Shown here: positions 9,834 to 36,344 of the stretch, piece after piece
Position numbering within the stretch: position 1 is the stretch's first letter
How the letters are laid out: every line of letters begins with the position of its first letter
DNA from: Myxococcota bacterium
Lineage (GTDB): Bacteria; Myxococcota_A; UBA796; CAJQPC01
Assembly: GCA_036012755.1 (NCBI GenBank)
Contig: DASCPX010000016.1
Coordinates: forward strand, 1 to 64,000
DNA: 64,000 nt
Direction of reading: 5' to 3'
Position numbers and translations under genes: made by a program
The notes under the pieces: model-generated
What the model was told of the DNA's origin: nothing
The model's input: the letters and a program-made list of their open reading frames with translations, nothing else
Databases searched by the model: none

Positions 9834-10763
9834 GTGCGAGTCGTCGTCACCGGGGGCGCAGGCTTCCTGGGCTCCTTCGTCGTCGAGCGCCTCCGCGCAC
9901 GGGGTGAAGACGTCTTCGTCCCGCGCTCCGCAGACACCGACCTGAGACAGCCAGAGGCCTGCCATCGGCTCATCCAGCAGCAGCGACCGGACCTGGTGGT
10001 GCACTGCGCCGTCAACGGTGGCGGCATCGGGTACATGGGCACGCACCCCGGGAGCGTGCTCTTCGACAACGTGACGATGAGCACGCACCTGATGGAGGCC
10101 TGCCGCCTCGGCGGCGTCGACAAGTTCGTGGGTGTCTCCAGTGTCTGCGCCTACCCCCGCATAGTGCCGATGCCGATGACCGAGTCGGACCTGTTCGAGG
10201 GCTACCCGGAGCCGAACAACGCCGGCTACGGCCTCGCCAAGCGGATGATGATGGAGCAGGGTCGGGCCTACGCGAAGCAGTACGGCTTCAACGCGGTGTT
10301 CCCGATGCCAACGAACCTCTACGGGCCCCGCGACATCTTCGATCCGGCGCGCTCCCACGTGGTGCCGGCGCTGATTCGGAAGTGCATCGAGGCCCGCGAT
10401 CGGGGGGACGACCACATCATCGCGTGGGGGACGGGGACGGCCACGCGCGAGCTGCTCTACGTCGAGGACTGCGCGGACGCCATCGTCGCGATGGCTGAGC
10501 GCTATGACTCGTGGGAACCGGTGAACATCGGCAACGGGCAGGAGTTCACCATCCGCGAGCTCGTCGAGACGGTCGCGTCGGTCTGCGGCTTCACCGGCGA
10601 GGTGCGCTGGGACACGGACAAGCCCGACGGCCAGCCCCGCAAGTGCCTCGATGTGTCACGGGCCGCCGAACGCTTCGGCTGGCGCGCGCAAATCGACCTC
10701 GAACAAGGGCTCCGCCGAACCGTCGATTGGTTCGTGGCCAGCGGCCTTCAGGGCAGCAGGTAG
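9834..10763 (+). CDS. fcl: GDP-L-fucose synthase / ColC-like epimerase-reductase
   Basis: TGGAGFLG, GGIG, SSVCAYP, YGLAK, PTNLYGP, SHVVPAL, WGTG..TRE, KPDGQP. Confidence 0.9.
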   Translation: MRVVVTGGAGFLGSFVVERLRARGEDVFVPRSADTDLRQPEACHRLIQQQRPDLVVHCAVNGGGIGYMGTHPGSVLFDNVTMSTHLMEACRLGGVDKFVGVSSVCAYPRIVPMPMTESDLFEGYPEPNNAGYGLAKRMMMEQGRAYAKQYGFNAVFPMPTNLYGPRDIFDPARSHVVPALIRKCIEARDRGDDHIIAWGTGTATRELLYVEDCADAIVAMAERYDSWEPVNIGNGQEFTIRELVETVASVCGFTGEVRWDTDKPDGQPRKCLDVSRAAERFGWRAQIDLEQGLRRTVDWFVASGLQGSR

Positions 10764-11236
10764 AGCACTCCGGCGACCACCATCAGGCTGACCGCGGTCG
10801 CCCCGCAGAGCATCATCAGCGCAGCCGTGTGGCCACTGTCGAGGCCCTCTGCGCACGCCAGTGGGCTCATCGGGGACCAGTCCTTGGGGAGCTTGTTCTC
10901 CGGGGCCTCCGTCAGCCCTGCGAGCCGCTTGAGGAAGCGGTCGAGGAGATCCTGCTCCGCCTCGGGCGTGTCGATGAAGCGAAGCCCCGAGATCGTGCTG
11001 CCGGCGGCGGCCTCGCGACACCACACCAGTCGCGCGCGCAGGTGCACCTCGTCAGAGCGCATGCGCAGCCTGAGCGCGATGGGCCGGTCCGGTTCCGGTG
11101 GGGCGCCCTTCACCGAGATCCCGCCCTCCGACAGATCGAGGGTGCTCCAGTTTCCGCTGCTCTCGCCCTGGGTCCAACCTGCAAACACCAGGGCCAGGAG
11201 ACGATCGTGTGCACGAGTCTGCTCTGCGCGATGCAT
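10748..11236 (-). CDS. PilZ-domain protein with C-terminal TM
   Basis: RAHDR (RxxxR), DLSEGG (DxSxxG), ARLVW, GLRF. Confidence 0.8.
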   Translation of the reverse strand: MHRAEQTRAHDRLLALVFAGWTQGESSGNWSTLDLSEGGISVKGAPPEPDRPIALRLRMRSDEVHLRARLVWCREAAAGSTISGLRFIDTPEAEQDLLDRFLKRLAGLTEAPENKLPKDWSPMSPLACAEGLDSGHTAALMMLCGATAVSLMVVAGVLYLLP

Positions 11237-17590: not shown

Positions 17591-18465
17591 CGGACCTCCA
17601 CGGTCTGGACGACCCAGTGGTTGTCAGGGGCGGAGACCCCTTCGCGGCCGTTGAAGACGACCACGACGGCGACGCGCGGCGTGCCCTGCTCCGGCAGGGT
17701 CCAGCGATTGGTCGTGCTCGTGAGGCCCTCTGGCCAGGCCGCGTCGTCCTCGACGTAGCCGTGGGCGATGGTCCAGCCGGTGTCCTCGAGCACCCCGTCG
17801 TCCACGTACCAGAGGAAGTCGGCTCCCCGGAGGTCACCCTCCACCGAGAGCGTGACCTCGATGGTCTCCCCAGCCCCCGCGCTCTCCGGCACGTCCAGGT
17901 CGATGCGGGAGCTCCGAAGAGACGTGGGGAACTCCGTGTCCACAGGCTTGGTGTTCCAGCTGACCCACCCGGCGGCGAAGACCGGCTGCTCGTCCACCGA
18001 GCCCTCCAGGACCAGCGGCAGCTCGTGGGCGCAGGTGTTGCCGCCCCTGTCGAGGCCAGTGTCCGCCGTTCCGGAAGACCCGCTGTCCCAACCCCCGCTG
18101 TCCCACCAGATGACCCCACACTCGTCGATCTCGGGAGTCGGCGGCGGAGTGAACTGCAAGGAGTTGCCTGTGCCTTCGGCGATGCGGACGATCTCGCCGG
18201 GGTCCTGGAAGCAGTTGAGATCACCGATGTAGGTCACGACGTCCCGCCCCAGGGCGCAGGTCTCCAGCGAGTAGCCGCCGAGGTCTCCCCCGCGAGGGGC
18301 CAGCAGGAGCCACTCCAGGGTGTACTGGTGATCGGGCTCCACCCGCGGGGGGTCCAGCGCCATCGCGACGATGCGCGGGTGCTCGATCCGGTACTCGGTG
18401 GCGAGGTAGACCGTGCGCGAGGCGAAGAGCTCGCCGAAGCAGCCGCTGAGGACGAAGACGAGCAT
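17587..18465 (-). CDS. TBDR-associated lipoprotein
   Basis: MLVFVLSGC; TGATG overlap with the TBDR stop; PRIVAMALDPP, FLWYVDDG. Confidence 0.8.
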   Translation of the reverse strand: MLVFVLSGCFGELFASRTVYLATEYRIEHPRIVAMALDPPRVEPDHQYTLEWLLLAPRGGDLGGYSLETCALGRDVVTYIGDLNCFQDPGEIVRIAEGTGNSLQFTPPPTPEIDECGVIWWDSGGWDSGSSGTADTGLDRGGNTCAHELPLVLEGSVDEQPVFAAGWVSWNTKPVDTEFPTSLRSSRIDLDVPESAGAGETIEVTLSVEGDLRGADFLWYVDDGVLEDTGWTIAHGYVEDDAAWPEGLTSTTNRWTLPEQGTPRVAVVVVFNGREGVSAPDNHWVVQTVEVR

Positions 18466-20747
18466 CAGAAGCGAGCCTCCACGCCGAGGGTGGGCAGGAT
18501 CGGCAGGTGCGCCATCGGCACCATCTCGCTGTAGTCGTAGTCGTAGACGGCGATGAAGGCGTTCTTCCGCCAGGTCAGGTTGTAGACGTCCAGCCTTCCG
18601 ACCCAGTCGACGCGGCGGGTGGACCAGGTCTTCTGGAGTCCTGCGTCGATGCGAAAGTAGACCGGGTAGCGCTCGCTGTTGATCTCGCCCCGGTACTCGG
18701 TGAACCAGGCGTCTTGGGGCACGTAGACACCATAGAGCGGCGTATAGGGCTGGCCGGAGGTGAACTGCATGCGGGCCGAGGCGCTCCACTCCCGCTGCAT
18801 GTCGAGGGCGCCGAGCACCGTGAGCGCGACTGGCTGGTCGTAGTCACCGGAGAAGGCCCCGAGGTCCTCGTCGATGCGGATCGCGCGACCGATGGTGAAG
18901 GCCACCCAACCCCACCAGGGAGCCTGCTCGGGCTGCATGCGGATGAGCCCCTCGAACCCGGCGGAGTAGCCCCGCACGTGCAGGAACTCCGGGCGGAGCG
19001 TGGAGTACGCGACGTCGTCCTCTGTGTAGACCTCTGAGACGAGGTTGCGCACGATGAGATCGTCCATGATCGCACCATAGACGGAGGCGTCGAAGGAGAG
19101 CCCGGCGACCAGCGGTCCTTCGGCGCCCACGCTCGCCTGCCACGCGGACATGATGGGGAGCTCCGGGTTGCCGATGCCCTGGGCGTAGCGCTCGACCGGC
19201 GGCATCTGGCTGTAGCGGCCGATCGCGGCCTTGCCGAGCCAGTCGTCTCCGACGTCGCGACGCAGGGACAGGCGAGGCTCGGCCTGGAGCGAGGTCTGGC
19301 CGTTCCAGGCGTAGGCGCTGCCTCGCAGGCCGGGGGCGACGTACCAGGCGCCGACCTTCAGCTGGGGCTCGAACCAGGCCGAGCCCGTGCTCTGGTCGTC
19401 GCGGCTCTCAGGCACCTCCGCCTCCGGGTCCTCCCAGACCCCGGAGAAGTCGTAGGCGACCACGGGCCGCAAGGTGACCTGGGCTCCGTGGACCAGGGTC
19501 ACGGAGTCGGAGAGCTCCCAGCCCTCGTCTCGCCGCACGATCAGGCTCATGCCCTCGGTCTTGCCCAGGTAGGGGCCCTGACGCGACATCTGGCCGGCTC
19601 CGAGCAGGTTCTGATCGGTCTCCTGGCCATAGGCGACCCAGGTCCCGTGCCGGTGGAAGCCGTCGTCGTGCACCCAGCGCAGCCGCACGCGCACGAACTG
19701 CTTGTCGATGTACTCCTCGGGGTCGTAGGGCAGGTCCCAGTCCTCCCACTCGGGGGCATCGGGCTCGCCGTCTCCGTCCTCGTCGTAGCGGCCCTCGCGC
19801 AGCACCAGCCGGTCGCGGCTCGCGAGGAGCAGCAAGGAGACCTCGTCGTCGTGGTTGGCCTGCCAGCGGACGTCGGCGAAGAGATCCGCGTACTTCGGAG
19901 AGAAGTAGCCAGCCTCGTAGGACTCACCGCCGGCGCGCTTCACCGCGATCATGCTGCCCCCCCAGATCAAGGCGTGCATCCAGGAGTACCGGCCCGCCGC
20001 TCGGACGACCAGGTGCTCGTTGAAGCGGTGCTCGAAGCTCGCGCTCCCGTCGAGGAAGTCCAGGCCGACGTGGGCTCGGGTGCGGCCCACGGGGTAGGCG
20101 TCGGTGACCACGTTGACCGTGGCCTGGGTCACCTCGCCATAGGCGCTGGGCATGCCGCCCGGGTAGAACTCGATCTGGTCGATGAAGCCGGGCGGAAGGA
20201 CGCTGCGACCGACGAGGCTGTGGAACATGTACGGCACGGGCATGCCGTCGACGGTGTAGGCGGTGTTGATGCCCTCTGCCCCTCGCACGACGAGGGCCCC
20301 CTCCGCGATGTTCGGCCGGGCCACGCCGGGCAGGGCCTGGAGAGCGCGCACCGGATCGCCGAAGGTCCCGGGCACTGCCCGCAGCTCGTCGGCGGTGACG
20401 ACGGTCTTGTGGACCTCTGGGCCGATGGCCTCGTCCACCACGGTGATCGTCATGCCAGGTGGGGCCTTCATCCGGATCTTGATGCGCGCAACCTCACCAG
20501 GGCCCAGGCGCTCGCGGTCGAGCTGGAGGCCGTAGGCGTCGTGCCGGATGACGATGTCGTAGGTGCCGGCGACCGTGGGGATCTCGAAGCGGCCGGAGAC
20601 ATCGGAGCGCCCGCTGGCGACTACCCGTCCGTCGACCTTCAGCGCGATCTCGGCACCCACGACCGGCTCGCCCGTGACGTCGTCGATGAGGATCCCGCCA
20701 AGGGTGGCTGGAGCAGCGGCGACAGCAGCAGCGACCAGGTTCAACAC
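18465..20747 (-). CDS. TonB-dependent receptor with N-terminal carboxypeptidase-regulatory-like domain
   Basis: Plug VPGTFGDPVRALQALPGV...VRG, EPRLS, LDVYN, C-terminal Phe. Confidence 0.92.
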   Translation of the reverse strand: MLNLVAAAVAAAPATLGGILIDDVTGEPVVGAEIALKVDGRVVASGRSDVSGRFEIPTVAGTYDIVIRHDAYGLQLDRERLGPGEVARIKIRMKAPPGMTITVVDEAIGPEVHKTVVTADELRAVPGTFGDPVRALQALPGVARPNIAEGALVVRGAEGINTAYTVDGMPVPYMFHSLVGRSVLPPGFIDQIEFYPGGMPSAYGEVTQATVNVVTDAYPVGRTRAHVGLDFLDGSASFEHRFNEHLVVRAAGRYSWMHALIWGGSMIAVKRAGGESYEAGYFSPKYADLFADVRWQANHDDEVSLLLLASRDRLVLREGRYDEDGDGEPDAPEWEDWDLPYDPEEYIDKQFVRVRLRWVHDDGFHRHGTWVAYGQETDQNLLGAGQMSRQGPYLGKTEGMSLIVRRDEGWELSDSVTLVHGAQVTLRPVVAYDFSGVWEDPEAEVPESRDDQSTGSAWFEPQLKVGAWYVAPGLRGSAYAWNGQTSLQAEPRLSLRRDVGDDWLGKAAIGRYSQMPPVERYAQGIGNPELPIMSAWQASVGAEGPLVAGLSFDASVYGAIMDDLIVRNLVSEVYTEDDVAYSTLRPEFLHVRGYSAGFEGLIRMQPEQAPWWGWVAFTIGRAIRIDEDLGAFSGDYDQPVALTVLGALDMQREWSASARMQFTSGQPYTPLYGVYVPQDAWFTEYRGEINSERYPVYFRIDAGLQKTWSTRRVDWVGRLDVYNLTWRKNAFIAVYDYDYSEMVPMAHLPILPTLGVEARF

Positions 20748-22515: not shown

Positions 22516-24114
22516 CTACTGCTCGAACCAGCGGATGTAGTAGGGCTTGACTGGTTGGGGGACGGGGTTCGGCGCGATGCCAGGCGTACCCCGCGGGTGG
22601 AGCTGCTCGGCTCGGGGGACCTGGGCGCGATCCAGGCGGCCGGTCGGTGGATCCGGGTCGAGCGCCCCGGGCGCCCAGGTCCACAGCTGGATGCCCGAGT
22701 CGTGGGCAAGGAGCTCCGCGCCGCTCATCGCCTCCACCCGGGCGATGACCTCGGTCGCCTCGTCGTGGATCAGGATGTGGCTGGCCGCACCCAGTCCCCG
22801 CTCGTCTCCCTTGTGGGCGAGGCTCTCGCCGATGGTGTAGGAGCGCGAGCGGCCGCTGGCTGCGAGGCACCACTCGACCGGCACGACCAACACGGCGTCG
22901 GGGGGGACCTGCTCCGCGAGCGCCCAGGCAGGGTGGGTCCATGAGGGTTCGACCGGTGTCCAGCCCGTCACCCAGTTCCGCTCCACCGCCCAGGCCTTCA
23001 TCTGGTGGCCACACCAGGCCGCCCCGACAGCCGCCGCCAGGATCGGCAGCACCCTGGCGGCCACGCCCAGCCGCGACCAGGCCAACAGGCGCAGGATGCG
23101 GGCGGCGCCGACGACGCTGGCCACGGCCGCGAAGGCCACCGCCGGTGCGACGTGATGAGCGTGGCTGGACCAGTGCCGATCGATGCCATGGCCCGATGGG
23201 ATCGTGGCGTGGACCAGGAGCGTGCCGATGCTCCCGAGGAGCGGGATCGGTGCGAAGAGCGTCAGGGCCGGGAGGGGGCCGAGGCAGCTGAGGTAGAAGT
23301 TCGTCGAGCCCGCCCCTTCGAGCTTGATGACGCCGCGGGCCGAGATGAAGTCGTGGGAGACGCCCTGCAGCGGCATCGCGTATTCGTCCTGGGGTACGAG
23401 CTCCGTCGACAGGACGACGTAGGCTCCGACCATCACCAGCGCGATGGCGACCCTCAGGAGACGACCCAGGGGACGGAGCCGTCCCCGCAGGGTGGGCGCC
23501 GCGCAGAGAGGCAGCGCGACCAGCGCGATGACCGGCGCGAGAACGAGGGTCTCCTCTCGCGGCAGGATGCAGGCGAGCGCACCGATGGGAGCGAGCCACC
23601 AGCGCTCGTGACCGAAGGCCCACCAGGCGAGCACCACTCCCGGGAGCGCGAAGACGAGGTCCTGGTAGTCCTGGAGGGCGAGCTCGAGGACCGGCGGACT
23701 GGCGAGATAGAGCGCAGCCAGCATCAGCCCCCAGTCGGAGCCGAGGTGGCGGCGTCCGATCAGGGCCGCCGGGATGACGCCGGCGAGCACCGCGAGGATC
23801 TGGATGTGCGAGAGGGTCTGGGCGCTGGGAGCGACCCCGTAGAGCCAGGCCACCGGCACCAGCACGGGCGCACGGTGGCCACCCCACGTCCAAGCGTCGG
23901 AGTAGCCGCTGTGGATGGTCTGGGAGAAGCCGTCGCCGAAGCGGAAGTTGAAGATCAGCTGCTCGAAGACCGCCAGCCCGTAGGGCTCGACCGTCTGCAT
24001 CGCCGCGATGCGCGCTGAGATCGTGCTGGAGGCCGTGCACCACCAGAGCCAGGCCAGGACCGCCAGGACGGCAATCGACACCCCTGGCGCCAGGAATCGG
24101 CGGTCCAGTCGCAT
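22516..24114 (-). CDS. DUF2079-like polytopic membrane protein (GT-C-like)
   Basis: LAVFEQLIFN, GGHRAP, LYLASP, REE; many TM segments. Confidence 0.7.
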   Translation of the reverse strand: MRLDRRFLAPGVSIAVLAVLAWLWWCTASSTISARIAAMQTVEPYGLAVFEQLIFNFRFGDGFSQTIHSGYSDAWTWGGHRAPVLVPVAWLYGVAPSAQTLSHIQILAVLAGVIPAALIGRRHLGSDWGLMLAALYLASPPVLELALQDYQDLVFALPGVVLAWWAFGHERWWLAPIGALACILPREETLVLAPVIALVALPLCAAPTLRGRLRPLGRLLRVAIALVMVGAYVVLSTELVPQDEYAMPLQGVSHDFISARGVIKLEGAGSTNFYLSCLGPLPALTLFAPIPLLGSIGTLLVHATIPSGHGIDRHWSSHAHHVAPAVAFAAVASVVGAARILRLLAWSRLGVAARVLPILAAAVGAAWCGHQMKAWAVERNWVTGWTPVEPSWTHPAWALAEQVPPDAVLVVPVEWCLAASGRSRSYTIGESLAHKGDERGLGAASHILIHDEATEVIARVEAMSGAELLAHDSGIQLWTWAPGALDPDPPTGRLDRAQVPRAEQLHPRGTPGIAPNPVPQPVKPYYIRWFEQ

Positions 24115-24124
24115 GGGGCCGGGC

Positions 24125-24840
24125 TTAACCCGTCCCCTCTCGCCCTCCGGGTGACTGGCGGCGCCTGCGCAACAGCAACAAGCCGGCGAGGTCCAGCAGG
24201 CCGACCGGCCCTCCTCCTCCGCAGCCGCAGCCCTCGTCGTCGAAGCTCGGGGCCTCCTCCGTGCAGACCTCGTCGACCTCGCCGTCCCCGTCGTCGTCGT
24301 AGCAGGTCGTCCCCTCGTCGACCGTGTCGTCACAGTCGGTGTCGGCGTCTGCTGGCTGATCGTCAGTCGGCGAGAAGCGCACGGTGATGAGGCGCTCTTC
24401 ACCCTGCGGCACGGGCAGCGGGTCGTCGAGGACCTCGTAGGAGGGCAGATCGATGTCCCACTCGCGCACCGTGGTGGGCATGTCTCCGGCGCCCGAGAGC
24501 GTGAACTCCAGCTCGGCGACCTCTCCGGGCTCGACGAAGCCGAAGTCCAGCGAGGCGGGCCAGCCTCGCAGCCGAGGCTCACCGCAGAAGCCCCGCACCT
24601 GGAGCTCGGGCAGCGTGTTGTCGGTGTCGCTGGTGATCTCGACCAGGGCCCGGTGGTAGCCGCGAGCCGGGGGCTCGAAGGTGAGGGTGGCGAAGCCGGT
24701 GCCACCAGCCGGGATGATCTCGTCCCAGGAGTCGACCCCGAAGCCCTCGCCCTCGACCGGGGTCAGGCTGATGTTTCGGATCGAGATGTCCCCGCCGCGG
24801 AGGTTGTCCAGCTGCAGGGTGAGCTCGAGGGCATCCAGCG
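24125..24840 (-). pseudogene. 5'-truncated Ig-like (choice-of-anchor D type) surface protein with collapsed Cys repeats and MYXO-CTERM-like tail
   Basis: Frame open upstream of 24598 (LTLQLDNLRGG...); LDFGFV, ITVRFSP; GCGC...LLLLRRRR; no signal peptide. Confidence 0.65.
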
Positions 24841-25363
24841 CATCCGCGGCTTCGACAGCCCCGTGCTGACCGGCGGCGGAGCGGGGACCATCGTCGAGGT
24901 CCGAGGAAGCAGCCAGGTCGAGCTCAGAGACCTGGTCTTCGAGGCTGGCGCGACCTGCGCCGGCGCCATTCGCCTGGGCGAGCTCGTCAGCTGTTCGGGA
25001 GACACAGCCGAGCTGAACACGACCACCACGGGGAGCCTCGCGCTGGACGGGGTCTCGATCACGGCGGTGGGCTCCAACGACAGCACCATGGCCGCCGTGG
25101 TGCTCACGGGCGGCTCCTTCGAGCTCGTCGACTCGACGATCGACCAGGCGGAGCCGAACGCGATCCTGGCCTATGACTCAGGGATCTCCTGCGTCGACAG
25201 CGACGTGATGTCCTACCCCGACGCCGGCGTGCAGGTCTACGGCACCGGCTGGAGCTTCGACAGCAGCGGCTGCACCTGGGGCGACGACGTCCTCGTCTAC
25301 GAGGGCAAGACCCTCTGGGACGGCGAGGGCGACGTCTCCTGCGACGCGAGCGGCTGTCAGTAG
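24841..25363 (+). pseudogene. 3' fragment of a beta-helix (pectin-lyase-like) protein
   Basis: PVLTGGGAGTIVEV...LRDLVFEAG...VSCDASGCQ*; no credible start. Confidence 0.55.
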
Positions 25364-25893
25364 TCGACGAGGAAGCCCCGGCGCCAGTGGAACGCGTCTT
25401 CGTCCTCGTCCGGGGTCTCGGGCTCGAGGTAGCCCCAGCAGAGCTCGCTCTCGCCGACGCCGTCACCGATGCGGACCAGAGCCTTGAGGCGACCGAAGCC
25501 ATAGAAGGCGGGCTCCTCTGTCTGGGCCGGGAAGATCCCGGCGACGCCGGTCACGTTGTCCTCGAAGGAGATGGTCGGCATGTCCTCGAGGTCCACGCCC
25601 TCGGGCAGGACGGCGTCCGGGGTGATGAACGCACCGGCGAAGAAGCGGATGGCTGTGCTGGAGCCCGTGCTGGTCGCGGTGAGCCTGTAGGCGAAGCCCC
25701 AGCCCTCCTCGTCCAGGTCGTCGAAGAAGTCGGTTCCCCAGCCCTCGCCCTCCTCGTCGACAGCGTCGTCGAGCACGTCCGCCCCTTCGTACTCCGCCTC
25801 GAGGTCAGGGGCCTGGTCCCAGTCCGTCAGGCCGAACGCAGCCTCGCCGCACACCCGGTTGCGGCATGCGGCGAGGGAGAGGCCAAGCAGCAT
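25357..25893 (-). CDS. Acidic lipoprotein, last gene of the FHA/SEDS-PBP operon
   Basis: MLLGLSLAAC; TGATG overlap with the SEDS-PBP stop. Confidence 0.7.
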   Translation of the reverse strand: MLLGLSLAACRNRVCGEAAFGLTDWDQAPDLEAEYEGADVLDDAVDEEGEGWGTDFFDDLDEEGWGFAYRLTATSTGSSTAIRFFAGAFITPDAVLPEGVDLEDMPTISFEDNVTGVAGIFPAQTEEPAFYGFGRLKALVRIGDGVGESELCWGYLEPETPDEDEDAFHWRRGFLVDY

Positions 25894-28877
25894 CAACGTG
25901 ATGCTTGCACGTCCGCCTCGAAGTAGCCGAGGTCCGCGGCAGCCTGGGCGACCTCCACCGCCGCGGGACCTGCCACCGAGGCGCCGAAGCCACCTCGGGG
26001 AACGAGCACCACGATGGCCAGCCTTCCGGGCGCCACCGCCTGCTCGGCGCGGAGCTCGTCGGACTCGGCGATCAGCGCGAACCATGCGTGCGGCGTCGCG
26101 TCCTCGCCGACCTCGAGTCCGTAGGGGATCTCGTCCGTGCGGCCCTTATCGTCGGCCGTGCCCGACTTCCCGTAGAGCCTCACGCCGTCGACGTCTGCGA
26201 GCCGCTTGCCCGTGCCGCCCGGTCCCATCACCTTGCGCATTCCCTTGAGGATCACGGACAGGGCGCGGTGGTCGGAGGTGAGGACCACCTCCTCACAGAC
26301 AGAGTCGACGGACAGATCGTCAGGACAGCGCCGATAGACCCCGCCTGCCGCGATGGCGGCGACGATGCGGGCGGCCTGCAGCGCGGAGAGCGCCGCGGCG
26401 CCCTGGCCGAAGCTCGTGCTGGCCAGCTGACGGCTGCCAGCCGGGCCCGGCTCGAAGTCGTCGGACCAGCCGATCTCGACACCCTCGGCCACGAGCCGGC
26501 GGAAGGGCTCCGGGCCCAGGTCCAGCCCGAGCTGACCGAAGAAGACGTTGCACGAGACCTTCAGCGCCGTGGACAAGCCGATGGTGCTGTGGGGCTCGTC
26601 CTTCCAGTAGTCGTGGACGCCGCGGGTCCAACCCCTGCGGATGAAGACGGGCCCGCTGGAGTCCTTCCTCACGCAGCCCTGGGTCGTGTTGACGTGCCCC
26701 TCGCGCACCGCGACCAGGGCGGTCACCAGCTTGAAGATCGAGCCGGCTTGCAGGACCAGCTGTGTCATGTCGGTCCAGGGGCCGTAGCTCCCCGTGAAGA
26801 CCTCGTCTCCCACGATGACCGGCTCCAGGGCAGCGGGGCCAGCGGCGTCGAAGGCCGGGGACTGGGCCCGCGCGATGACCCGCCCGGTGTCGACATCGAT
26901 GACGACGATGGCGCCGCCTTCTCCGAGGTCGATGCGGGCGAGGGCCTCTGCGGCCGCGCGCTGGAGCTCGTCGTCCAGGCTCAGCTGCACCTCTCGGGAC
27001 TGCACATCGGCCGCGATCTGCAGGAGACGCTCGGCTCGCTCGTCCCGATCGAGGCGCATGAGGGGGAGCAGAGGCGCGTAGTCGGGCACCGCGTAGGGGG
27101 TCTCGCTGCCGTCCGCGTGCGCGAAGACGTAGGGCTCGCGGGAGCCGAAACCCCGGAGCCGCTCCTCGTAGAAGCGCTCGAGGTGGTACTCGTGCCGCAG
27201 GACCCTGCTGCCACCGGCCGGCCCGAAGATGCTGCCGATGCCGAGCCCCGGGTCCAGCTCACGGCTCGAGTCGACGAGCACGTCGCGGTCGCGATCGAGG
27301 AAGGGCCCGCGGGGAATGGACGCCGCGATGCGGTCCAGCCGCGGGTTCATCTCGATGGTCACGGTGCGATCGGCCAGGGTCCGGACGAGGGGCTCCGTGG
27401 CGATCCGGTCCGCGGCGAAGAGGCTGATCTCAGCCAGCGTGAAGACGCCGACAGCCCCGATGAGCAGGGCGACGACCCCGAGCTCGCCGAAGCCGGTTCG
27501 CAGCTCCACGAGCTCACCGCCGAGGCTCCGGGCCTGGCCGTCCTCGGCGAGCCGCAGCACGACACAGACAAGCCCCACGAAGGCGATCATGGAGCTCTTG
27601 CCGTCCGAGAGGAAGGGGGCCACGACGCCAGTGAGCGGGATGATCCCGACGGTCCCACCGAAGATGACAGCGAACTGGATCGCCAGCAGCAGGGACAGCG
27701 AGCCGGCCATCATGCCGCGCCGCGGGGTGCGGTTGTGGACCGCCACCATCAGGCCCTGGAAGACGAGCGCGCCGATGACGGCGACGTAGAGCCCGAGACC
27801 GACCAGGCCCTGCTCCTCGGCCAGGTGGGCCATCACGAGGTCCGTGTGGCCGGCCTCGATGGCGCCGATGTAGGCCTCGCCGGTGCCCAGGCCGAAGAGG
27901 CCTCCAGAGGCGATCGCCCACAGGGAGTGGCCGAGCTGCGCGCCATAGGGCAGCGCGTTGTCGAAGGGGTGGAGCCACATCAGGATGCGCGTACGGACGG
28001 TGTCCCCGATGGCCTCTGGGTTGGCGATGACGAAGGCAGCCACGAGACCGACGACGACCACGACCAGCCCAGCCCAGAACTTCGAGCGCGAGGCTGCGTA
28101 GAACATCGTGATGAACATCGCGCCGAGGATCAGGGTGGGACCCAGGTCGCGCACGACCACCAGCCCGACGAGCAGGGCGAACAGCACCACCAGGGAGCCC
28201 GCCAGCAGGTCCGGGCGAGGGATGGTGAAGGGCCCGACGCGGACCCGGTGGGTGCGCAGCCGGGTGGCGACCTCTGCGAGGCTCAGGGCCAGGACGACGG
28301 CGAAGGCCATCTTCACGAGCTCGAGGGGCTGGAAGACGAACAGGCCGAGGTCGAAGTTGATGAAGGTGTCGGAGCCGTCGGGCCCGCTGCCGAAGAGGCG
28401 CAGGAGCACAGGCACGACCACCACGGAGGCAGCCAGCGGCCAGCGGAGCTTCCAGACCACGCCGTCCGGCTCCCAGGGGGAGGCCAGCACCAGTCCTCCC
28501 AGGATGCCAGCCATCAGCACGCCCGTAGCGAAGCCAGGACCGGGCCAGCCCGCGCCCCGAGTCGGGTCGCCGTAGCCGATCTGGATCATGAGGCCGAAGG
28601 CCATCGCCAGGACCAAGGCCGGCAGCATCAGCGGCACCAGGATGTGTCGCCCGCCGCGGCGGAGCCCGATGAGCCGTCCGCTGAGCAGGGCGAGGCCTCC
28701 AAAGACGAAGAACCAGGCGCTGCGCGAGGCGATGGCGAGGACCTCTGCGTCCGTCCGGAGCAGCTCCCCAGAGCGACCGGCGGCGTGCACCAGCGTCACC
28801 TCCGCCGCCTCCTGGGCACCGAAGAAACCCACCGCGATGGCCGCGATGGTCAACAAGATCTCGATGAACGTCCTCAT
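25893..28877 (-). CDS. FtsW/RodA (SEDS) - class B penicillin-binding transpeptidase fusion
   Basis: SEDS: QPLELVK, DLGP, GGLFGLG, HTD, EEQG, PLTGVVAPFLS.G.SS; PBP: RGPFLDR, SIFK, SCN, FGQG, KSGT. Confidence 0.93.
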   Translation of the reverse strand: MRTFIEILLTIAAIAVGFFGAQEAAEVTLVHAAGRSGELLRTDAEVLAIASRSAWFFVFGGLALLSGRLIGLRRGGRHILVPLMLPALVLAMAFGLMIQIGYGDPTRGAGWPGPGFATGVLMAGILGGLVLASPWEPDGVVWKLRWPLAASVVVVPVLLRLFGSGPDGSDTFINFDLGLFVFQPLELVKMAFAVVLALSLAEVATRLRTHRVRVGPFTIPRPDLLAGSLVVLFALLVGLVVVRDLGPTLILGAMFITMFYAASRSKFWAGLVVVVVGLVAAFVIANPEAIGDTVRTRILMWLHPFDNALPYGAQLGHSLWAIASGGLFGLGTGEAYIGAIEAGHTDLVMAHLAEEQGLVGLGLYVAVIGALVFQGLMVAVHNRTPRRGMMAGSLSLLLAIQFAVIFGGTVGIIPLTGVVAPFLSDGKSSMIAFVGLVCVVLRLAEDGQARSLGGELVELRTGFGELGVVALLIGAVGVFTLAEISLFAADRIATEPLVRTLADRTVTIEMNPRLDRIAASIPRGPFLDRDRDVLVDSSRELDPGLGIGSIFGPAGGSRVLRHEYHLERFYEERLRGFGSREPYVFAHADGSETPYAVPDYAPLLPLMRLDRDERAERLLQIAADVQSREVQLSLDDELQRAAAEALARIDLGEGGAIVVIDVDTGRVIARAQSPAFDAAGPAALEPVIVGDEVFTGSYGPWTDMTQLVLQAGSIFKLVTALVAVREGHVNTTQGCVRKDSSGPVFIRRGWTRGVHDYWKDEPHSTIGLSTALKVSCNVFFGQLGLDLGPEPFRRLVAEGVEIGWSDDFEPGPAGSRQLASTSFGQGAAALSALQAARIVAAIAAGGVYRRCPDDLSVDSVCEEVVLTSDHRALSVILKGMRKVMGPGGTGKRLADVDGVRLYGKSGTADDKGRTDEIPYGLEVGEDATPHAWFALIAESDELRAEQAVAPGRLAIVVLVPRGGFGASVAGPAAVEVAQAAADLGYFEADVQASR

Positions 28878-29590
28878 GCCTTGTCCTCCACTGGCCCGAC
28901 CCTTGCGACGAGCACCGTGACGTTGTCCCTGCCGCCTCTGTCCAGGGCGAGCCCGATGAAGCGATCGGCCAGCTCCGCGAGGTCCTGACCGAGCTCGCGT
29001 GCCGTACGGAGCTCGGCGTAGATCTCGCTGTTCAGCACGTGGTCGGAGAGGCCGTCGCTGCACAACAGCAGCAGATCTCCGGGCTCCACGTCGAGCTCGG
29101 CGAGGTCGACGACATCGGCCGCGAGCTCAGAGTCAGCGCCCAGATCACGGGTCACCTCGTTGCGACCGGGCGCCCGGTGGGCCTCTGATTCGCTCACGCA
29201 GAAGCGCTCCAGGCTGCGCTCACGGACCGTGTGGTCCCGCGTGAGCAGCATGCAGGCACCGCCAGCCTGGGCGGCAAAGACCCGACAGTCGCCGACGTGG
29301 GCGATGGTGGCTCGGCTCCCGTCGATCGCGACGCGCGCGGCGACACAGCCCATGCCTGCCAGATCGGGGTGTTCGAGGGTCCGCCCGAAGACCGCGGCGT
29401 TGGCGGCCACGAAGCGCTCGACCGGCTCCCCTTCACGGACGAGCTCGGTGACGGCCAGGGCCGCGGCCAGCTTGCCGGCCACGTGCCCGCCCATGCCGTC
29501 GACGACGACGAGCACGCCCTCGCCGATGGCGAAGACGTCTTCGTTTGCCCGGCGGACCAGGCCGCGATGAGTGCGCCCCTCTGCCGCCAT
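28874..29590 (-). CDS. PP2C-family Ser/Thr phosphatase
   Basis: RRANED, DGMGGH, HVGD.R, CSDGL, GGRDNVT. Confidence 0.95.
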   Translation of the reverse strand: MAAEGRTHRGLVRRANEDVFAIGEGVLVVVDGMGGHVAGKLAAALAVTELVREGEPVERFVAANAAVFGRTLEHPDLAGMGCVAARVAIDGSRATIAHVGDCRVFAAQAGGACMLLTRDHTVRERSLERFCVSESEAHRAPGRNEVTRDLGADSELAADVVDLAELDVEPGDLLLLCSDGLSDHVLNSEIYAELRTARELGQDLAELADRFIGLALDRGGRDNVTVLVARVGPVEDKA

Positions 29591-30450
29591 CACAGCTTCT
29601 CCACCGTCAGCGTGAGCAGACCGTTGGTGAGGTGGACGACGACGGCGTCGTCGAAGGGAACGCTGATCTCCTTGCCGCACATCAGCTGGGCTTCGCCGAC
29701 GGCGACCGGGTTGCCCAGCATGCGCTCGACCAGGACCTGGTCAGAGACGACCTCCAGGCGCAGGTGCTGGCGTGAGAACTCGCTGGAGCCCGTCGGCAGG
29801 GAGATGAAGTCGCTCCCACCGCCTCCACCGCGACGTCCGAGGGTGTAGCGGACACCCTCCTGCAGCCGACCGAAGGGCCTGTCGTGACAGCGCAGCTCGG
29901 CGACGACCCGCCCCTGGCGCTGCACCGGGCTGGCGTGCCGTCGCACGGTGAAGGGGGACCCGGCGCGCTCCGTCTCCACCATGTCCGGGTCGTCCTCGTC
30001 GATGGGGACGTGGCCACGGAGGGTCTCGGAGCCCTCGGCGCCCTTGTCCTCTGGGTCGATGACGAAGCGACCGTGACCTCGGTACAGCTCGGGGTTCTCC
30101 TCGAAGCGCAACGTGAAGCCCTCGGTCGATGCACCGCGCCTGCGAGCAGCCTCGGTCAGGCCGAACTCGATCGCCGGCCGGGCGCTGGCCGCGTAGGGAT
30201 CGAGGGAGCGGTGGTCCTCGGAGGAGAGCTCCAGGGTCCAGTCCGTCCCGATCAGCGGGTTGCCGGCAGCGTCCAGAGCAGTGTGCTCGTCGACGACCCC
30301 CTCGCAAGCGCGCACGACCAGGTGGGGGTCGACCTGCAGGTTGGCGGCGCCCAGCCAGCGGCTGAGGCTCCACCAGGGCTGACGCTCCTGCCAAAGCCGC
30401 TTGAAGTCGATGTCGAAGCGGCCATCGCCGCCATGGATGCTCTTGGACAT
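29590..30450 (-). CDS. FhaA-like protein (DUF3662-like N-domain plus FHA)
   Basis: L.LSSED...L.PY N-domain; FHA LGR...SRQH...GN; AAGGAG SD. Confidence 0.8.
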   Translation of the reverse strand: MSKSIHGGDGRFDIDFKRLWQERQPWWSLSRWLGAANLQVDPHLVVRACEGVVDEHTALDAAGNPLIGTDWTLELSSEDHRSLDPYAASARPAIEFGLTEAARRRGASTEGFTLRFEENPELYRGHGRFVIDPEDKGAEGSETLRGHVPIDEDDPDMVETERAGSPFTVRRHASPVQRQGRVVAELRCHDRPFGRLQEGVRYTLGRRGGGGGSDFISLPTGSSEFSRQHLRLEVVSDQVLVERMLGNPVAVGEAQLMCGKEISVPFDDAVVVHLTNGLLTLTVEKL

Positions 30451-30461
30451 GGGTGTCTCCT

Positions 30462-31175
30462 TCAGGCCTCGACGACGAGGGCGAGGCGGAACTGGGGGGC
30501 GGAGCCGAAGAGCAGCAGCCTGTCTCCCGCCCTCAGCACGAGGCGGCCAGCGGGGTCGGGCAGGACGCGACCGCCGTCGGCGCGCTCCGCGACCACGAAG
30601 CGACGCTGGCCGGACTCGGGGATCACGAGCAGGCGGCTCGCCAGGCGCTCGATGCGGACGGCCCGACGACTGACGAAGCGAGCGGACGAGGGCAACGCGA
30701 TGTCGTTCGCGCCGCCGCTGGGCGACTCCCGGCGCCACGCCCCACGGCCGAGGCTGAAGACCCGCTGGCTGCGAGGCAACGCGAACACCGCGCCCCGCCA
30801 CCGCCACGGACACTCCGCCGCCGGGGGCTCGAGCACGAAGCGGACGGGGGCGGGCTTGTCGACCTCGCGGCCGAAGCAACGGTTGCCCTCACCCTCCACG
30901 ACCTCGAAGTCCAGCGCTGGCAACACCTCCGGACCACTCCGGGCGAGTCGATTGACGACACGCTCCTGCACCTGCTGGGCGAAGCCCGGCTGGGCGACCC
31001 AGGCCTGCAGGGCCCCGCGCCCCGGTCCGGAGACCTCGTAGACGACCTCGATGGCTTCTGGGAAACACTCGCCGGAGTCATCCCGGCCGAGGTGTGCCAT
31101 GACCGCGTCCACCGCGGACTGCAGGGCCACCTCGCGGCTCACCTCGACCCTGTTCTCGAACAAACGGAAACGCAT
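30462..31175 (-). CDS. Protein with C-terminal degenerate FHA-like domain
   Basis: LGRG...NDIAL...FVSRRA; AGGAGG SD before ATG 31175. Confidence 0.7.
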   Translation of the reverse strand: MRFRLFENRVEVSREVALQSAVDAVMAHLGRDDSGECFPEAIEVVYEVSGPGRGALQAWVAQPGFAQQVQERVVNRLARSGPEVLPALDFEVVEGEGNRCFGREVDKPAPVRFVLEPPAAECPWRWRGAVFALPRSQRVFSLGRGAWRRESPSGGANDIALPSSARFVSRRAVRIERLASRLLVIPESGQRRFVVAERADGGRVLPDPAGRLVLRAGDRLLLFGSAPQFRLALVVEA

Positions 31176-32157: not shown

Positions 32158-34068
32158 ATGGCCGATCCCCAGACCCCCGACATCATCGACGCTGACGAGA
32201 CCGACGACAACGAGTTTTCGGTCCACAACTTCGACGCAGAGGTCCGACAGCTCCTCGACCTCGTCATCCACAGCCTCTACAGCGACCGCGAGGTCTTCCT
32301 TCGCGAGCTGATCAGCAACGCCAGCGACGCCCTCGACCGTGCCCGCATGGCAGGCCTGGAGAACCCGGAGCTGCGACCCGCCGACGGCGAGGCAGCGATC
32401 GACATCCGCGTCGACCCCGTCGAGTCGACCATCACGGTCTCCGACAACGGCATCGGCTTGACCGAAGAGCAGGCAGTCACGGCCCTGGGCACCATCGCTC
32501 ACTCCGGCACGAAGGCCTTCGCCAAGGCGCTGGAGGAGGGGGTCGATCACAACCTCATCGGCCAGTTCGGGGTCGGCTTCTACGCCGCGCTGATGGTCGC
32601 CGAGCACCTCACGGTCCACTCGCTGTCTGGCGAGCCCGAGGCAGAGGCCATCACCTGGGCCTGCGACGGCTCCACCGAGTACACGCTCGGCAAGGGCAAG
32701 CGCGAGACCCGCGGGACCGACGTGATCCTGAAGCTGCGCGAGGACGCCTTCGACTTCCTCGATCCGGAGACGCTCGCAGCCGTCGTCAAGCGCTACTCGG
32801 AGTTCGTCGGCTACCCGATCCGCATCGCCGAGGAGCAGGTCAACGAGCCCAAGGCGCTCTGGACCCGAAAGGCCTCTGACATCTCAGAGGACGAGTACAC
32901 CGCGTTCTACAAGCAGACCTGCGGCGACTGGGCCGACCCGGCGACCCACATCCACGTCCACGCCGACGCGCCGGTGCAGTTCAAGGCGCTGCTGTTCGTC
33001 CCGGCCATGGTGCCGCAGGATCTGAACTACTCCGACGGGCGGCGCCCGCTGAAGCTCTACGCCAAGCGCGTGCTCATCCAGGAGGAGGCCCGAGAGCTCC
33101 TCCCCGACTACCTCCGCTTCGTGCGCGGGGTCGTGGACTCAGAGGACATCCAGCTCAACGTGAGCCGCGAGCTCATCCAGCAGGACCGAACCGTGCGAGA
33201 GCTCCGGGAGCAGCTCGTCAACCGGGTGCTCCGCCACCTCAAGAAGATGGCGAAGAAGGACCGCGATGAGTTCGAGCGCGTCTGGACCGACTACGGCGCG
33301 GTGTTGAAGGAGGGCTTCAGCCGCCGCCCGGGCGAGGTCCTCGACGTGACCGGCAAGCTCACGGAGCTGGCGCTCTTTCGCAGCACGGAGAGCGACTGGA
33401 CCTCGCTCGCCGAGTACAAGGAGCGCATGGCAGAGGGCCAGGACACCATCTGGTTCCTCACGGCCACGGATCCGCAGACCGCCGCGCGCAGCCCCCACCT
33501 CGAGGGCTTCGCGAAGAAGGGCTGGGAGGTGCTGCTGTTGACCGACCCGGTCGACGAGTGGGTCGTCCAGAGCCTCAAGGACTACGAAGGCAACGAGCTC
33601 AAGGCCGTGAGCCGCGGGGAGCTCGAGTTCGACGAAGAGGAGGTCGACCACGACGACGCCCTCGACGAAGACCTCGTCGGCTGGCTCAAGGAGACCCTGT
33701 CCGACACGGTCAAGGACGTGCGCGTCAGCTCACGACTCACGGACTCGCCCTCGGTCCTGGTGGACGACGAGCACGGCATGTCCGCGAACATGCAGCGCAT
33801 CATGACGGCGATGAACCCCGGCATGTCGATGGCAAAGCGCATCCTGGAGATCAACCCCACGCATCCATTGATCCGCTCCCTGGAGGCCTTGCACGGCACC
33901 GGGCGCAAGACAGAGGCGCGCCCGCTGGCCTTCCTCCTCGTCGACCAGGCCAAGCTCTCGGAGGGCTTCGTGGACGACCCGGGAGCCCTCGTCGAGCGTC
34001 TCCAGGCCCTCAGCAAGCTCGCGGCGGCCGGGCTCATGGGCCATGATGGGGGCGGCGCCGAGGAGTAG
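32158..34068 (+). CDS. htpG: Molecular chaperone HtpG (Hsp90)
   Basis: HSLYS.REVFLRELISNASDA, IGQFGVGFY, LNVSRE, LEINPTH. Confidence 0.98.
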   Translation: MADPQTPDIIDADETDDNEFSVHNFDAEVRQLLDLVIHSLYSDREVFLRELISNASDALDRARMAGLENPELRPADGEAAIDIRVDPVESTITVSDNGIGLTEEQAVTALGTIAHSGTKAFAKALEEGVDHNLIGQFGVGFYAALMVAEHLTVHSLSGEPEAEAITWACDGSTEYTLGKGKRETRGTDVILKLREDAFDFLDPETLAAVVKRYSEFVGYPIRIAEEQVNEPKALWTRKASDISEDEYTAFYKQTCGDWADPATHIHVHADAPVQFKALLFVPAMVPQDLNYSDGRRPLKLYAKRVLIQEEARELLPDYLRFVRGVVDSEDIQLNVSRELIQQDRTVRELREQLVNRVLRHLKKMAKKDRDEFERVWTDYGAVLKEGFSRRPGEVLDVTGKLTELALFRSTESDWTSLAEYKERMAEGQDTIWFLTATDPQTAARSPHLEGFAKKGWEVLLLTDPVDEWVVQSLKDYEGNELKAVSRGELEFDEEEVDHDDALDEDLVGWLKETLSDTVKDVRVSSRLTDSPSVLVDDEHGMSANMQRIMTAMNPGMSMAKRILEINPTHPLIRSLEALHGTGRKTEARPLAFLLVDQAKLSEGFVDDPGALVERLQALSKLAAAGLMGHDGGGAEE

Positions 34069-34869: not shown

Positions 34870-34878
34870 CCTGTGGAT

Positions 34879-35568
34879 ATGTTGATCACCCTGTGGATCA
34901 CTGCTTGTTCGACTGATCAGAGTCCGCCTCCGACGCGGATTCTGATCGAGGCGCCGGATCCGGTCGTCGTGCAGCTCGAGGTGCCCCCGGAGCCCGTGGC
35001 GAACACGCCGCCGGAGGGCTGGACAGAGCTGGTCGGCGCCCCCTCGCTGGACTTCGCCTTCGACTACCACGGCACGGACAACTTCACCGGCGCCCAGCTC
35101 CCTGGCTACGAGGCGAAGGGCGCCTGGCTCCGGGACGAGGCGGCGGCGGCGCTCCTGTTGGCGGCGGCCGACCTCGACGCGCAGGGCCTCCGACTCGTCG
35201 TGCGTGACGCCTACCGGCCGGTCCGGGCGACCCTGGCGATGTGCGACTGGGCGGAGCGCACCGACCAGGTCCACCTCCTCGACGATGGCTACATCGCTCG
35301 GAAGTCAGGCCACAACCACGGCAACACCATCGACGTGAGCCTGAGCCGAGATGGGGTCGCGCTCGATTTCGGCAGCCCCTACGACCACTTCGGCGTCGAG
35401 TCCCACACCGCCAACGCCTCGGACGGGGCCGCAGAGGCCCGCGTCCTGCTCGGTGGGGCCATGTCGAAGCACGGCTGGAAGAACTACTCCAAGGAGTGGT
35501 GGCACTTCTCCTACTCGATGCAGGGCACCGAGCCCCTCGACGTGCCCTACGGGGTGTCGGGGGACTGA
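34879..35568 (+). CDS. ddpX: D-Ala-D-Ala dipeptidase (M15, VanX/DdpX-like), lipoprotein
   Basis: DAYRP, SGHNHGNTID, EWWHF; N-terminal LWITAC. Confidence 0.88.
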   Translation: MLITLWITACSTDQSPPPTRILIEAPDPVVVQLEVPPEPVANTPPEGWTELVGAPSLDFAFDYHGTDNFTGAQLPGYEAKGAWLRDEAAAALLLAAADLDAQGLRLVVRDAYRPVRATLAMCDWAERTDQVHLLDDGYIARKSGHNHGNTIDVSLSRDGVALDFGSPYDHFGVESHTANASDGAAEARVLLGGAMSKHGWKNYSKEWWHFSYSMQGTEPLDVPYGVSGD

Positions 35569-35582
35569 GGTAGGGTCGCGCC

Positions 35583-36344
35583 GTGCTGCGACGTCTTCCG
35601 TTTTCGATCCGAGTAGGACTTCGCAGGGTCCCCGCCACGCTGAGATGGCTGGGCCGACCTCGTCTTGCTCGGGGCGACATCACCGACTTCCCGGCGCTAC
35701 ATGCCAGGCGCCGGAGCCCCCTCCGCCGCCAGTCCACGCTCTACGCAGGGGGCCTCCAGGCCGCCAAGGAACACAACGTGCGGCGAGCCGCGGCCTTGAT
35801 GGACGGAGTCGTCATCGACCCCGGCCAGAGCCTCTCCTGGCACGCCGTCATCGGCCCGCCGATCCGCGCTCGGGGCTTCGTCCCCGGCCCCGAGCTCCAC
35901 GCCGACCGCCTCGCCCAAGGAGGAGGTGGTGGGCTCTGCCAGGTTGCGAACCTCGCAGCCTGGCTGGCGGTGCATGCTGGACTCGAGCTCCCCGTGCGCC
36001 ACCGCCACGGCCTCGACCTGTTCCCAGACGAGGCCCGGACCGTGCCCTTCGGTCTGGGCGCGACCGTCTTCTTCCCGACCCGCGACCTGGTCATGAAGAA
36101 CCCGCACGAAGTGCCCCTGCGTCTGGGCTTCGGCGTCGAAGATGGCTTCCTGCTCGGCGAGCTCCGCTTCACGGAGCCCCTGGACGAGCGCTTTGTCGTC
36201 GAGGAGCGTGACGCCGGCTTCGAGCGCATCGATGGCGTCGTCTACCGCTTCAACCGCCTGGTCCGTGTGAGCGCGCACGGCGAGGAGCTGCTCTGGTCGA
36301 CCCGCGCCCGGGTCGCCTACTCCGTCTCCGAGGAGCTGCTGTGA
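35583..36344 (+). CDS. VanW-family protein
   Basis: GGGLCQV, RHRH, PFGLGATV, DL..KN. Confidence 0.88.
   Translation: MLRRLPFSIRVGLRRVPATLRWLGRPRLARGDITDFPALHARRRSPLRRQSTLYAGGLQAAKEHNVRRAAALMDGVVIDPGQSLSWHAVIGPPIRARGFVPGPELHADRLAQGGGGGLCQVANLAAWLAVHAGLELPVRHRHGLDLFPDEARTVPFGLGATVFFPTRDLVMKNPHEVPLRLGFGVEDGFLLGELRFTEPLDERFVVEERDAGFERIDGVVYRFNRLVRVSAHGEELLWSTRARVAYSVSEELL

Follow-up and report, generated by a model that had tools for sequence, protein, structure and literature searches.

SEDS glycosyltransferases and penicillin-binding proteins of class B (bPBPs; PBP for penicillin-binding protein) have repeatedly been found joined in one chain. In the survey of Garcia-del Portillo et al. 2025 (PMC12516126), 117 SEDS-pedestal-transpeptidase chimeras ('bifunctional bPBPs') are tabulated and argued to be linked to elongation, and chimeras flanked by Ser/Thr kinase and phosphatase genes are described in Pedobacter ginsengisoli, a diderm whose chimera has no pedestal, and in Senegalimassilia faecalis. 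Natural fusions, including that of R. jostii RHA1, are mentioned in PMC10449877, where an engineered RodA-PBP2 fusion is reported as active. Besides, actinobacteria carry the cluster fhaA-fhaB-pstP-rodA-pbpA-pknA-pknB (PMC6554272), and mycobacterial RodA is described as dispensable, independent of MreB and protective when the wall has been damaged (10.1101/2021.10.26.465981). Here we analyse an operon at 25357..31175 on the minus strand of a 64,000-nucleotide stretch from a Myxococcota bacterium (assembly GCA_036012755.1, contig DASCPX010000016.1, positions 1 to 64,000; hereafter the window), in which two FhaA-type genes, a PP2C phosphatase gene, a gene for a single-chain SEDS/bPBP of 994 aa and a small orphan gene follow one another. 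Its anatomy, conservation, phylogeny and patchy distribution are shown below, and the fusion is probably an accessory, signal-gated synthase. With so many chimeras tabulated, a novelty of the SEDS/bPBP fusion, left open in the initial annotation of this locus, is not supported; the fusion and its kinase/phosphatase context are already in print, and a specialist aware of the 2025 survey would not be surprised by them.

The fusion protein and its place among SEDS proteins

The fusion gene (25893..28877, minus strand) holds both halves in one frame with the catalytic motifs intact, just as the initial annotation had read it. The SEDS domain (27543..28430, residues 150-445) matches PF01098 with 159 bits against a cut-off of 26.4 and carries HTD at 344-346, with the catalytic Asp346 at 27840-27842; the D,D-transpeptidase domain (26058..26915, residues 655-940) matches PF00905 with 84.5 bits against a cut-off of 22 and carries SxxK as SIFK at 713-716 (26730-26741), SxN as SCN at 775-777 (26547-26555) and KSG at 904-906 (26160-26168). 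The AlphaFold2 model of the chain, made from a 66-row alignment, has a pLDDT of 93.6 and a pTM of 0.87. A hydropathy scan gives 13 hydrophobic segments within residues 1-484, which we take to be two helices added at the N-terminus, the ten helices of the SEDS part and the anchor of the PBP, and the two added helices agree with the 12 transmembrane segments (TMs) predicted for C. glutamicum RodA (PMC4285798). By structural alignment the PBP half has the bPBP fold (Z 37-40), so that the marks of a class B PBP, namely SxxK, SxN, K(T/S)G and a transpeptidase fold behind a membrane anchor, are all found in the fusion. Among representatives below 50% identity these motifs are invariant, with Ser713 and Lys716 in 138/138, SxN in 135/135 and KxG in 130/130. 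The Pfam pedestal, sought as PF03717 (PBP_dimer) or PBPA_dimer PF21922, was matched at E<=0.05 by 0/28 members of clade A (the relatives with at least 35% identity to the window protein); since the structural alignment of the PBP half begins at residue ~518, a reduced pedestal is present. The best match of this half is M. tuberculosis PbpA by both phmmer and Foldseek, with a small margin.

SEDS trees were computed from 125 rows and from a careful subset of 46 rows (LG+G4, unrooted, with the groups named after the first tree). All fusions form one clade (100/99), which is sister to stand-alone SEDS proteins of the actinobacterial RodA type (100/100), a sister group in which only two rows are named (Blastococcus and Chloroflexota), and the two clades together are split from Rod-system RodA and dcw FtsW at 100/100. 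Orthology to either canonical protein was considered and is rejected by the approximately unbiased test, with p=0.0003 for grouping the fusion with RodA and p=0.00008 for grouping it with FtsW. Because the SEDS half is sister to the actinobacterial-type RodA, the sequences indicate that the module corresponds, in a diderm and with its synthase fused, to the actinobacterial fhaA-pstP-rodA-pbpA-pkn cluster. The initial annotation had spoken of an analogous module; the likeness to a related FHA/PP2C/SEDS-bPBP module stands, while the tree shows homology and not analogy alone.

An assembly artefact as the source of the fusion is ruled out by identical copies, contigs of sequencing runs and relatives spanning both halves. 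In fact the fusion protein occurs at 100% in two other assemblies (loci L126 and L127), and two contigs of sequencing run X9, which belongs to a different study, match the SEDS/PBP junction without change; one contig of run X6 covers 24600-31135, with all four gene junctions, and has one substitution (codon 744, Val to Phe) and zero gaps, though its study includes other samples that may be the source of the window and it is thus not fully independent. A stop between the two halves, which the initial annotation had named as refuting, is present neither here nor in the other assemblies and contigs. As to the relatives, 134 of the best 150 representatives (50% identity level) span both active sites, both Pfam domains are found in 69 of the 72 other word-index matches, the fusion is split into two open reading frames (ORFs) at 5/159 loci, and two of three loci flagged '1 TGA' are single ORFs when extracted. 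As a separate observation, window position 26648 is C where all four sequencing runs compared have A (Val744 -> Phe), which is either a variant or an assembly base error.

With residue roles taken from E. coli RodA (PMC10449877), the window protein keeps the equivalents of D262 (D346), Q111 (Q183), E114 (E186), K117 (K189), D159 (D244), R210 (R297) and S344 (S428), and among the representatives Asp346 (146/146) and Arg297 (143/143) are invariant. The W102 column, by contrast, holds Asn174 in the multiple alignment, and the canonical R101-W102 pair is turned into I/V/L-N across the family, with Ile, Val or Leu in 136/136 representatives and Asn in 105/136; Trp stands in this column in 30/30 canonical SEDS and in 17/21 sister-clade rows. 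Moreover the Gly343 column becomes Lys or Arg in 106/148 fusion representatives, within the C-terminal signature, and the TM2 Gln column becomes Phe in 82/134. Such a set of changes around an invariant donor-side Arg and catalytic Asp would be expected if the SEDS half were not a processive polymerase at all, making instead short glycans or using a different acceptor, for example in patching broken strand ends, and Trp102 is indeed called invariant in PMC10449877 with a proposed role in processivity. However, the loop register is uncertain, as a pairwise alignment with E. coli RodA sets Phe172 opposite Trp102, the W102F variant of RodA kept its in-vitro activity (PMC10449877), and the Arg is missing from the actinobacterial-type sister clade as well, 4/21 of whose rows lack the Trp. 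On balance an altered chemistry of this kind seems unlikely to us.

A reduced copy of a five-gene module

The five minus-strand ORFs of the operon were verified (third-position GC content 0.85-0.91), and their overlapping stop and start codons lie as the initial annotation had claimed. An AGGAGG site precedes ATG 31175 of the first gene, FhaA-a (30462..31175), whose end is separated by 11 nt from the start of FhaA-b (29590..30450); the stop of FhaA-b overlaps the PP2C ATG 29590 in the junction TGATG (29592-29588), the PP2C gene (28874..29590) and the fusion gene share ATGA (28877-28874), and the fusion gene meets the last gene (25357..25893) at TGATG (25895-25891, with ATG 25893). A promoter and terminator scan of the locus gave nothing above chance.

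The first gene had been annotated as a lone FHA protein. An FHA domain is there, but the gene encodes a second FhaA-type two-domain protein of 237 aa, with an N-terminal alpha/beta domain and a C-terminal FHA domain. The window protein alone has zero Pfam matches, and neither FHA protein of the window reaches the Pfam FHA model singly; the FhaA-a family profile matches the FHA domain of EmbR/OdhI/GarA, the top Foldseek matches of its AlphaFold2 model (pLDDT 87.7) are FHA folds, and HHalign relates the FhaA-a and FhaA-b families at 97% probability across both domains. FhaA-b (286 aa, FhaA_N plus FHA) matches PF12401 with E=0.008, under the cut-off, with its relatives above it, and its family profile matches M. 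tuberculosis FhaA/TB39.8 in both domains (2lc1 E=4e-5, 2lc0 E=0.006); acidobacterial FHA members exceed the Pfam FHA cut-off. FHA domains bind phosphothreonine through the motifs G-R, S-x-x-H and N-G. These are complete in FhaA-b of the window (G-R, S-R-Q-H, N), and in FhaA-a the G-R and S-R are kept, the FHA His is replaced by Ala and Asn-Gly is absent.

The PP2C/PPM Ser/Thr phosphatase (238 aa from its ATG) matches PF00481 with 42.5 bits and NF033484 with 155 bits, under the latter's cut-off of 230. It is soluble and has no TM, and the phosphatases of 6/6 relatives examined within the order carry a membrane helix and a periplasmic domain in addition; in clade A as a whole the TM form is found at 20/44 loci and the short form at 21/44. 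In the operon PP2Cs of L074 (3673-5337) and L084 (3800-5365) the catalytic domain is followed by a right-handed beta-helix domain, and the operon kinase of L057, L142 and L146 has an FGE-sulfatase domain. The sensor domains of the module are freely swapped.

Relatives of the locus were recovered by an alignment-based contig scan, a single-protein scan having given nothing. We scanned 164 loci, of which 159 held the fusion, with hidden Markov models (HMMs) built from about ten loci of the host's order, and clustered them at 90% identity into 129 clusters; the seed loci are included in the counts, and the kinase counts are lower bounds because at least one kinase (that of L128, on the opposite strand) escaped the kinase HMM. 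In clade A the gene order is FHAa-FHAb-(PP2C)-fusion-kinase, with FhaA-a in 39/40, FhaA-b in 40/40 and PP2C in 27/40 clusters, and with a same-strand kinase directly downstream of the fusion in 35 of the 53 clusters with enough flank; a convergent kinase is found at four further loci. In clade B, nearly all of which is labelled Acidobacteriota, PP2C is found in 47/50 and an upstream kinase in 49/50 clusters, and the sampled loci have the order FHA-PP2C-kinase-fusion-FHA. Among eight more loci of the class, picked from 36 matching genomes, seven have the five-gene order and one has the clade-B order, while locus L188 reads PP2C-fusion-kinase with a fusion of 1444 aa. The FHA/PP2C/fusion module is thus conserved across the Myxococcota-labelled and Acidobacteriota loci. 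Among the closest carriers that have names, most bear the label Myxococcota or Deltaproteobacteria, and some of the labels look unreliable; for example, records labelled Rickettsiales, Enterobacteriaceae or Klebsiella (L054, L055, L061, L065) carry fusions nested among the Myxococcota-labelled ones.

The statement that the operon has no kinase is thus right for the window copy and wrong for the design of the module, given the downstream kinase of clade A and the upstream kinase of clade B. The operon kinase of the host's order (L026, L029-L031, L033-L037, L044 and others) is membrane-bound, its periplasmic part being helical, and zero PASTA matches were obtained in the relatives' operon kinases scanned. 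An HMM of its periplasmic domain has zero matches in the host genome, where an orthologue was not found among 63 kinase-like ORFs. The complete module has five genes, for two FhaA-type proteins, PP2C, fusion and membrane Ser/Thr kinase; the locus studied here is a reduced version of it, with the kinase lost.

Such a reduction might go further, to a module that was acquired by the genus and is now decaying with little present function, with the kinase lost, the phosphatase truncated and a Pro-to-Glu change near the active site of the SEDS half. Besides the cognate kinase missing from the assembly, the fusion is absent from the 100% complete congener G002 and found in 0/16 other genomes of the host's own family (at least 90% completeness), and the downstream slot differs between the host genome (G000) and L128. 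However, G001 and L128 retain all four coupled genes, intact and in unchanged order, at 52-66% protein identity, all catalytic residues are intact, the Glu in question (Glu341) is also found in the relative L054, whose kinase is retained, and short PP2Cs are common in the family. We regard such an eroding relic as improbable.

The last gene encodes an acidic orphan of 178 aa, which is translationally coupled to the fusion gene and starts with a short lipobox-like leader (LAAC). LpoA and LpoB are outer-membrane lipoproteins that activate their synthases, and the overlap of stop and start codons together with the leader could suggest a similar activator of the fused synthase; an activator role had been put forward in the initial annotation. 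Yet a homologue was found in 0/60 relatives searched, the gene occurs in 1/53 clade-A locus clusters, about 50 ORFs of the host genome carry a similar leader, and the closest relative L128 (66% identity), which has the same four genes and upstream neighbours, holds an unrelated gene in the downstream slot. The orphan has zero Pfam or NCBIfam matches, and an ESM Atlas feature search gives matches at 0.90 only, in clusters without names. The activator proposal thus fails on distribution and is very improbable; the orphan is not a conserved part of the module and is probably a passenger. In L128 the place behind the synthase (9968-10783, plus strand) is taken by a 271-aa gene without Pfam match, in which an FHA-like motif is seen by eye near the start.

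Among the neighbours in the window, a D-Ala-D-Ala dipeptidase gene (Peptidase_M15/VanX-like) adjoining a VanW-like gene lies at 34873-36344 on the plus strand, ~4 kb from the operon and downstream of htpG (32158-34068), and the dipeptidase and htpG are seen by eye on the same side of locus L128 too. On the minus strand there are a TonB-dependent receptor-like gene (18465-20747) and a DUF2079 membrane protein gene (22516-24705).

Rod machinery of the host and the likely role of the fusion

The host genome is 96% complete, and its sequence was found in marine sequencing runs. BamA-type genes in the genome and the TonB receptor in the window make the host a diderm, and the neighbours in the window include no mre genes; on both points the initial annotation was right. 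The host dcw cluster (contig C211) has FtsI, FtsW and FtsZ, and the genome has four class-A PBPs and two MreB, whose genes (C105:37260-38234 and C174:35229-36215) have no mre neighbours. MreC, MreD, a second pedestal PBP of the PBP2 type and a canonical RodA were sought in this genome and none was found. The same holds for nearly the whole order, where the same three of 61 genomes have, side by side, MreC above the cut-off, a second PBP with pedestal and a second SEDS of the canonical kind, and where MreB is found in 61/61, mostly in two copies; outside the order, at least two SEDS matches were counted by eye in 126/130 genomes of the phylum. Such an order-wide loss of mreC, pbp2 and rodA with MreB kept is possibly more surprising than the fusion itself, and no paper on it was found in our searches of the open-access literature.

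It is tempting to suppose that the fusion took over sidewall elongation after the loss of mreC, mreD, pbp2 and rodA, possibly guided by the orphan MreB paralogues. The gene content of the host fits such a replacement, and so does the absence of the fusion from 5/5 MreC-bearing genomes of the order, and in PMC12516126 the chimeras are argued to be linked to elongation. However, among the 86 order genomes of at least 90% completeness, MreC is found in 5, the fusion in 33, both in 0 and neither in 48, including the single-contig G187 with one SEDS and no MreC, and the mutual exclusion of MreC and fusion has p=0.08 even if kinship is ignored. Outside the order, 5/5 carriers have two canonical SEDS (FtsW and RodA) beside the fusion, Acidobacteriota among them, and in the host the four class-A PBPs and a divergent SEDS/PBP pair could serve instead. 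The 48 order genomes with neither system and the outside carriers that keep canonical SEDS argue that the fusion is not a required substitute for RodA, and we consider the replacement rather unlikely. The initial annotation had noted that its proposal would fall if the protein were simply the only RodA/PBP2 of the genome; half of this is the case, as no canonical RodA, PBP2, MreC or MreD was found, yet the fusion is not their orthologue.

The divergent pair lies at C59:171490-175257 on the minus strand, with the next gene running to 167519 (L016): a giant SEDS (1100-1500 aa, with the Asp motif as H-N/S-D-L) is followed by a giant PBP of ~1330 aa with SxxK/SxN/KTG, which the Pfam genome search missed in G000. 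An FHA-like stretch is seen by eye near the N-terminus of the giant SEDS, which is also found at L039, L040, L041, L042 and L043, and the pair is adjacent in G000, G002, G014, G018 and G051. As the giant SEDS keeps its Asp motif beside the giant PBP, the fusion is not the only non-division SEDS of the host. Another frame of 1506 codons at C196:1928-6448 (minus strand, L020) carries a transpeptidase (STVK, SEN, KTG) behind ~12 hydrophobic segments; its membrane half shows SEDS-like words by eye and matched neither SEDS HMM, and a profile comparison aligned its transpeptidase part only. It is possibly a second, very divergent fusion.

We somewhat favour the reading that the fusion is an accessory synthase independent of MreCD, which polymerises and cross-links peptidoglycan when needed under cytoplasmic gating by kinase, PP2C and FHA proteins, its own kinase being lost here. 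That it is probably accessory, as the initial annotation put it, follows from its patchy distribution (33/86) and its coexistence with FtsW and RodA in the five other genomes. Judging from the conserved catalytic residues, the SEDS half would use Asp346 to polymerise lipid II, and the attached transpeptidase would use Ser713 to cross-link the new strand into existing peptidoglycan; the fusion would fix a 1:1 pairing, so that an activation of the MreC/MreD or FtsQLB type through a large pedestal would not be needed. Gene linkage and the likeness to mycobacterial RodA further suggest that Thr phosphorylation in the cytoplasm may control activity or placement, with the FHA adaptors reading the mark and PP2C removing it, and that the job is likely to be wall reinforcement or repair on demand and not core elongation or division. 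In this genus, where neither the cognate kinase nor the phosphatase's periplasmic domain is left, the gating might be taken by some of the other kinases of the host, or there may be little control.

Several observations weigh against such an accessory, phospho-gated synthase. The conserved-Trp column has Asn in the fusion family, with Trp never among its five commonest letters, and the window copy has Glu341 at the Pro257 column, where Pro is retained in 134/146 of the family; a Pro257 mutation abolishes the activity of E. coli RodA (PMC10449877), so that with both columns changed the polymerase activity of the window copy is not assured. As for the PBP half, VIA-align puts PBP3 first, and the transpeptidase tree gives no resolved affinity to PbpA; in that tree another PBP of locus L146 stands under the label L146_FUS, and no conclusion on PbpA was drawn from it. 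On the regulatory side, 18/53 clade-A clusters have no same-strand downstream kinase and 13/40 no PP2C, and gene a as well as much of clade A keep the FHA motifs only in part. Read against the canonical kinase motifs, 28/28 aligned order kinases (duplicates included) have the beta-3 Lys replaced by Arg and the Gly-rich loop missing, and they keep D-x-K-x-x-N with DFG turned into D-x-D-T in 28/28 copies, which suggests a conserved pseudokinase-like membrane sensor; kinases elsewhere look canonical (27/31 in clade A, 46/54 in clade B). The Arg-for-Lys kinase and the partly degenerate FHA motifs weaken the case for a simple phospho-switch.

A bolder combination, which we think doubtful, would have a diderm, phylum-spanning family of single-chain synthases in which replacement of the invariant Trp and Arg and gain of a basic residue have remade the SEDS acceptor site, so that the enzyme patches without processivity and is gated in this order by a transmembrane pseudokinase and paired FhaA proteins, and which together with the giant divergent SEDS/PBP systems supplies sidewall synthesis outside the Rod paradigm, in an order that lacks MreC, MreD, PBP2 and RodA and keeps two orphan MreBs. 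In any case, a natural one-chain SEDS/bPBP offers structural and enzymological work a ready subject, in place of the engineered fusions that others had to make, and the family is a natural experiment on the 'invariant' SEDS tryptophan that is proposed to drive processivity. The FHA/PP2C/kinase-linked wall module known from actinobacteria is extended to Myxococcota-labelled and Acidobacteriota diderms, with more than 100 clusters at 50% identity, and in an order keeping MreB without the Rod synthase, the role of MreB without RodA-PBP2 becomes a testable question.

Comparison with known systems

Like the chimeras of PMC12516126, the window protein has SEDS and transpeptidase in one ORF of ~950-1000 aa with intact FtsW and FtsI alongside, and the layout of locus L188 is that of the examples flanked by kinase and phosphatase genes there. 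However, the entries of Table S11 of that survey are mostly from Actinomycetota and have a Pfam pedestal, which the window family lacks; the table has zero Myxococcota and one Acidobacteriota entry, with reversed domain order, though Table S8 may list members. The term 'FHA' is absent from the main text of the survey, and the window family is FHA-linked. In our searches of the open-access literature we found no paper on an FHA-linked fusion family in Myxococcota or Acidobacteriota, nor a description of a remodelled SEDS loop with family-wide loss of Trp or of a pseudokinase-like partner.

Among the top structural matches of the PBP half are transpeptidase domains from Coriobacteriia, namely Atopobium parvulum (4JBF, 4N1X, 4R3J) and Eggerthella lenta (4MNR). 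These come from monoderm hosts, have only the transpeptidase half solved, share about 25% identity with the window protein and, in the Atopobium entries, have beta-lactams bound. The chain numbering 523-950 indicates that the Atopobium protein has ~950 aa and that the structure is its C-terminal half, and both sets of entries are probably the transpeptidase halves of similar fusions.

With RodA-PBP2 and FtsW-FtsI the fusion shares the two catalytic folds and residues, but it differs from them in its separate SEDS clade, in having no mre/dcw context and no Pfam pedestal, and in the changed Trp102 and Arg101 columns. In gene order the module resembles the actinobacterial cluster, since clade A has two FHA genes, phosphatase, SEDS, bPBP and kinase in this order, the FhaA_N+FHA architecture and a sister SEDS. 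Unlike in that cluster, the synthase is fused, the host is a diderm, and the second FHA gene encodes a further soluble protein of the FhaA type; there is one kinase, without PASTA match in those scanned, pseudokinase-like in the order and absent in the window copy, and the PP2C of the window is soluble where the actinobacterial PstP is a transmembrane protein.

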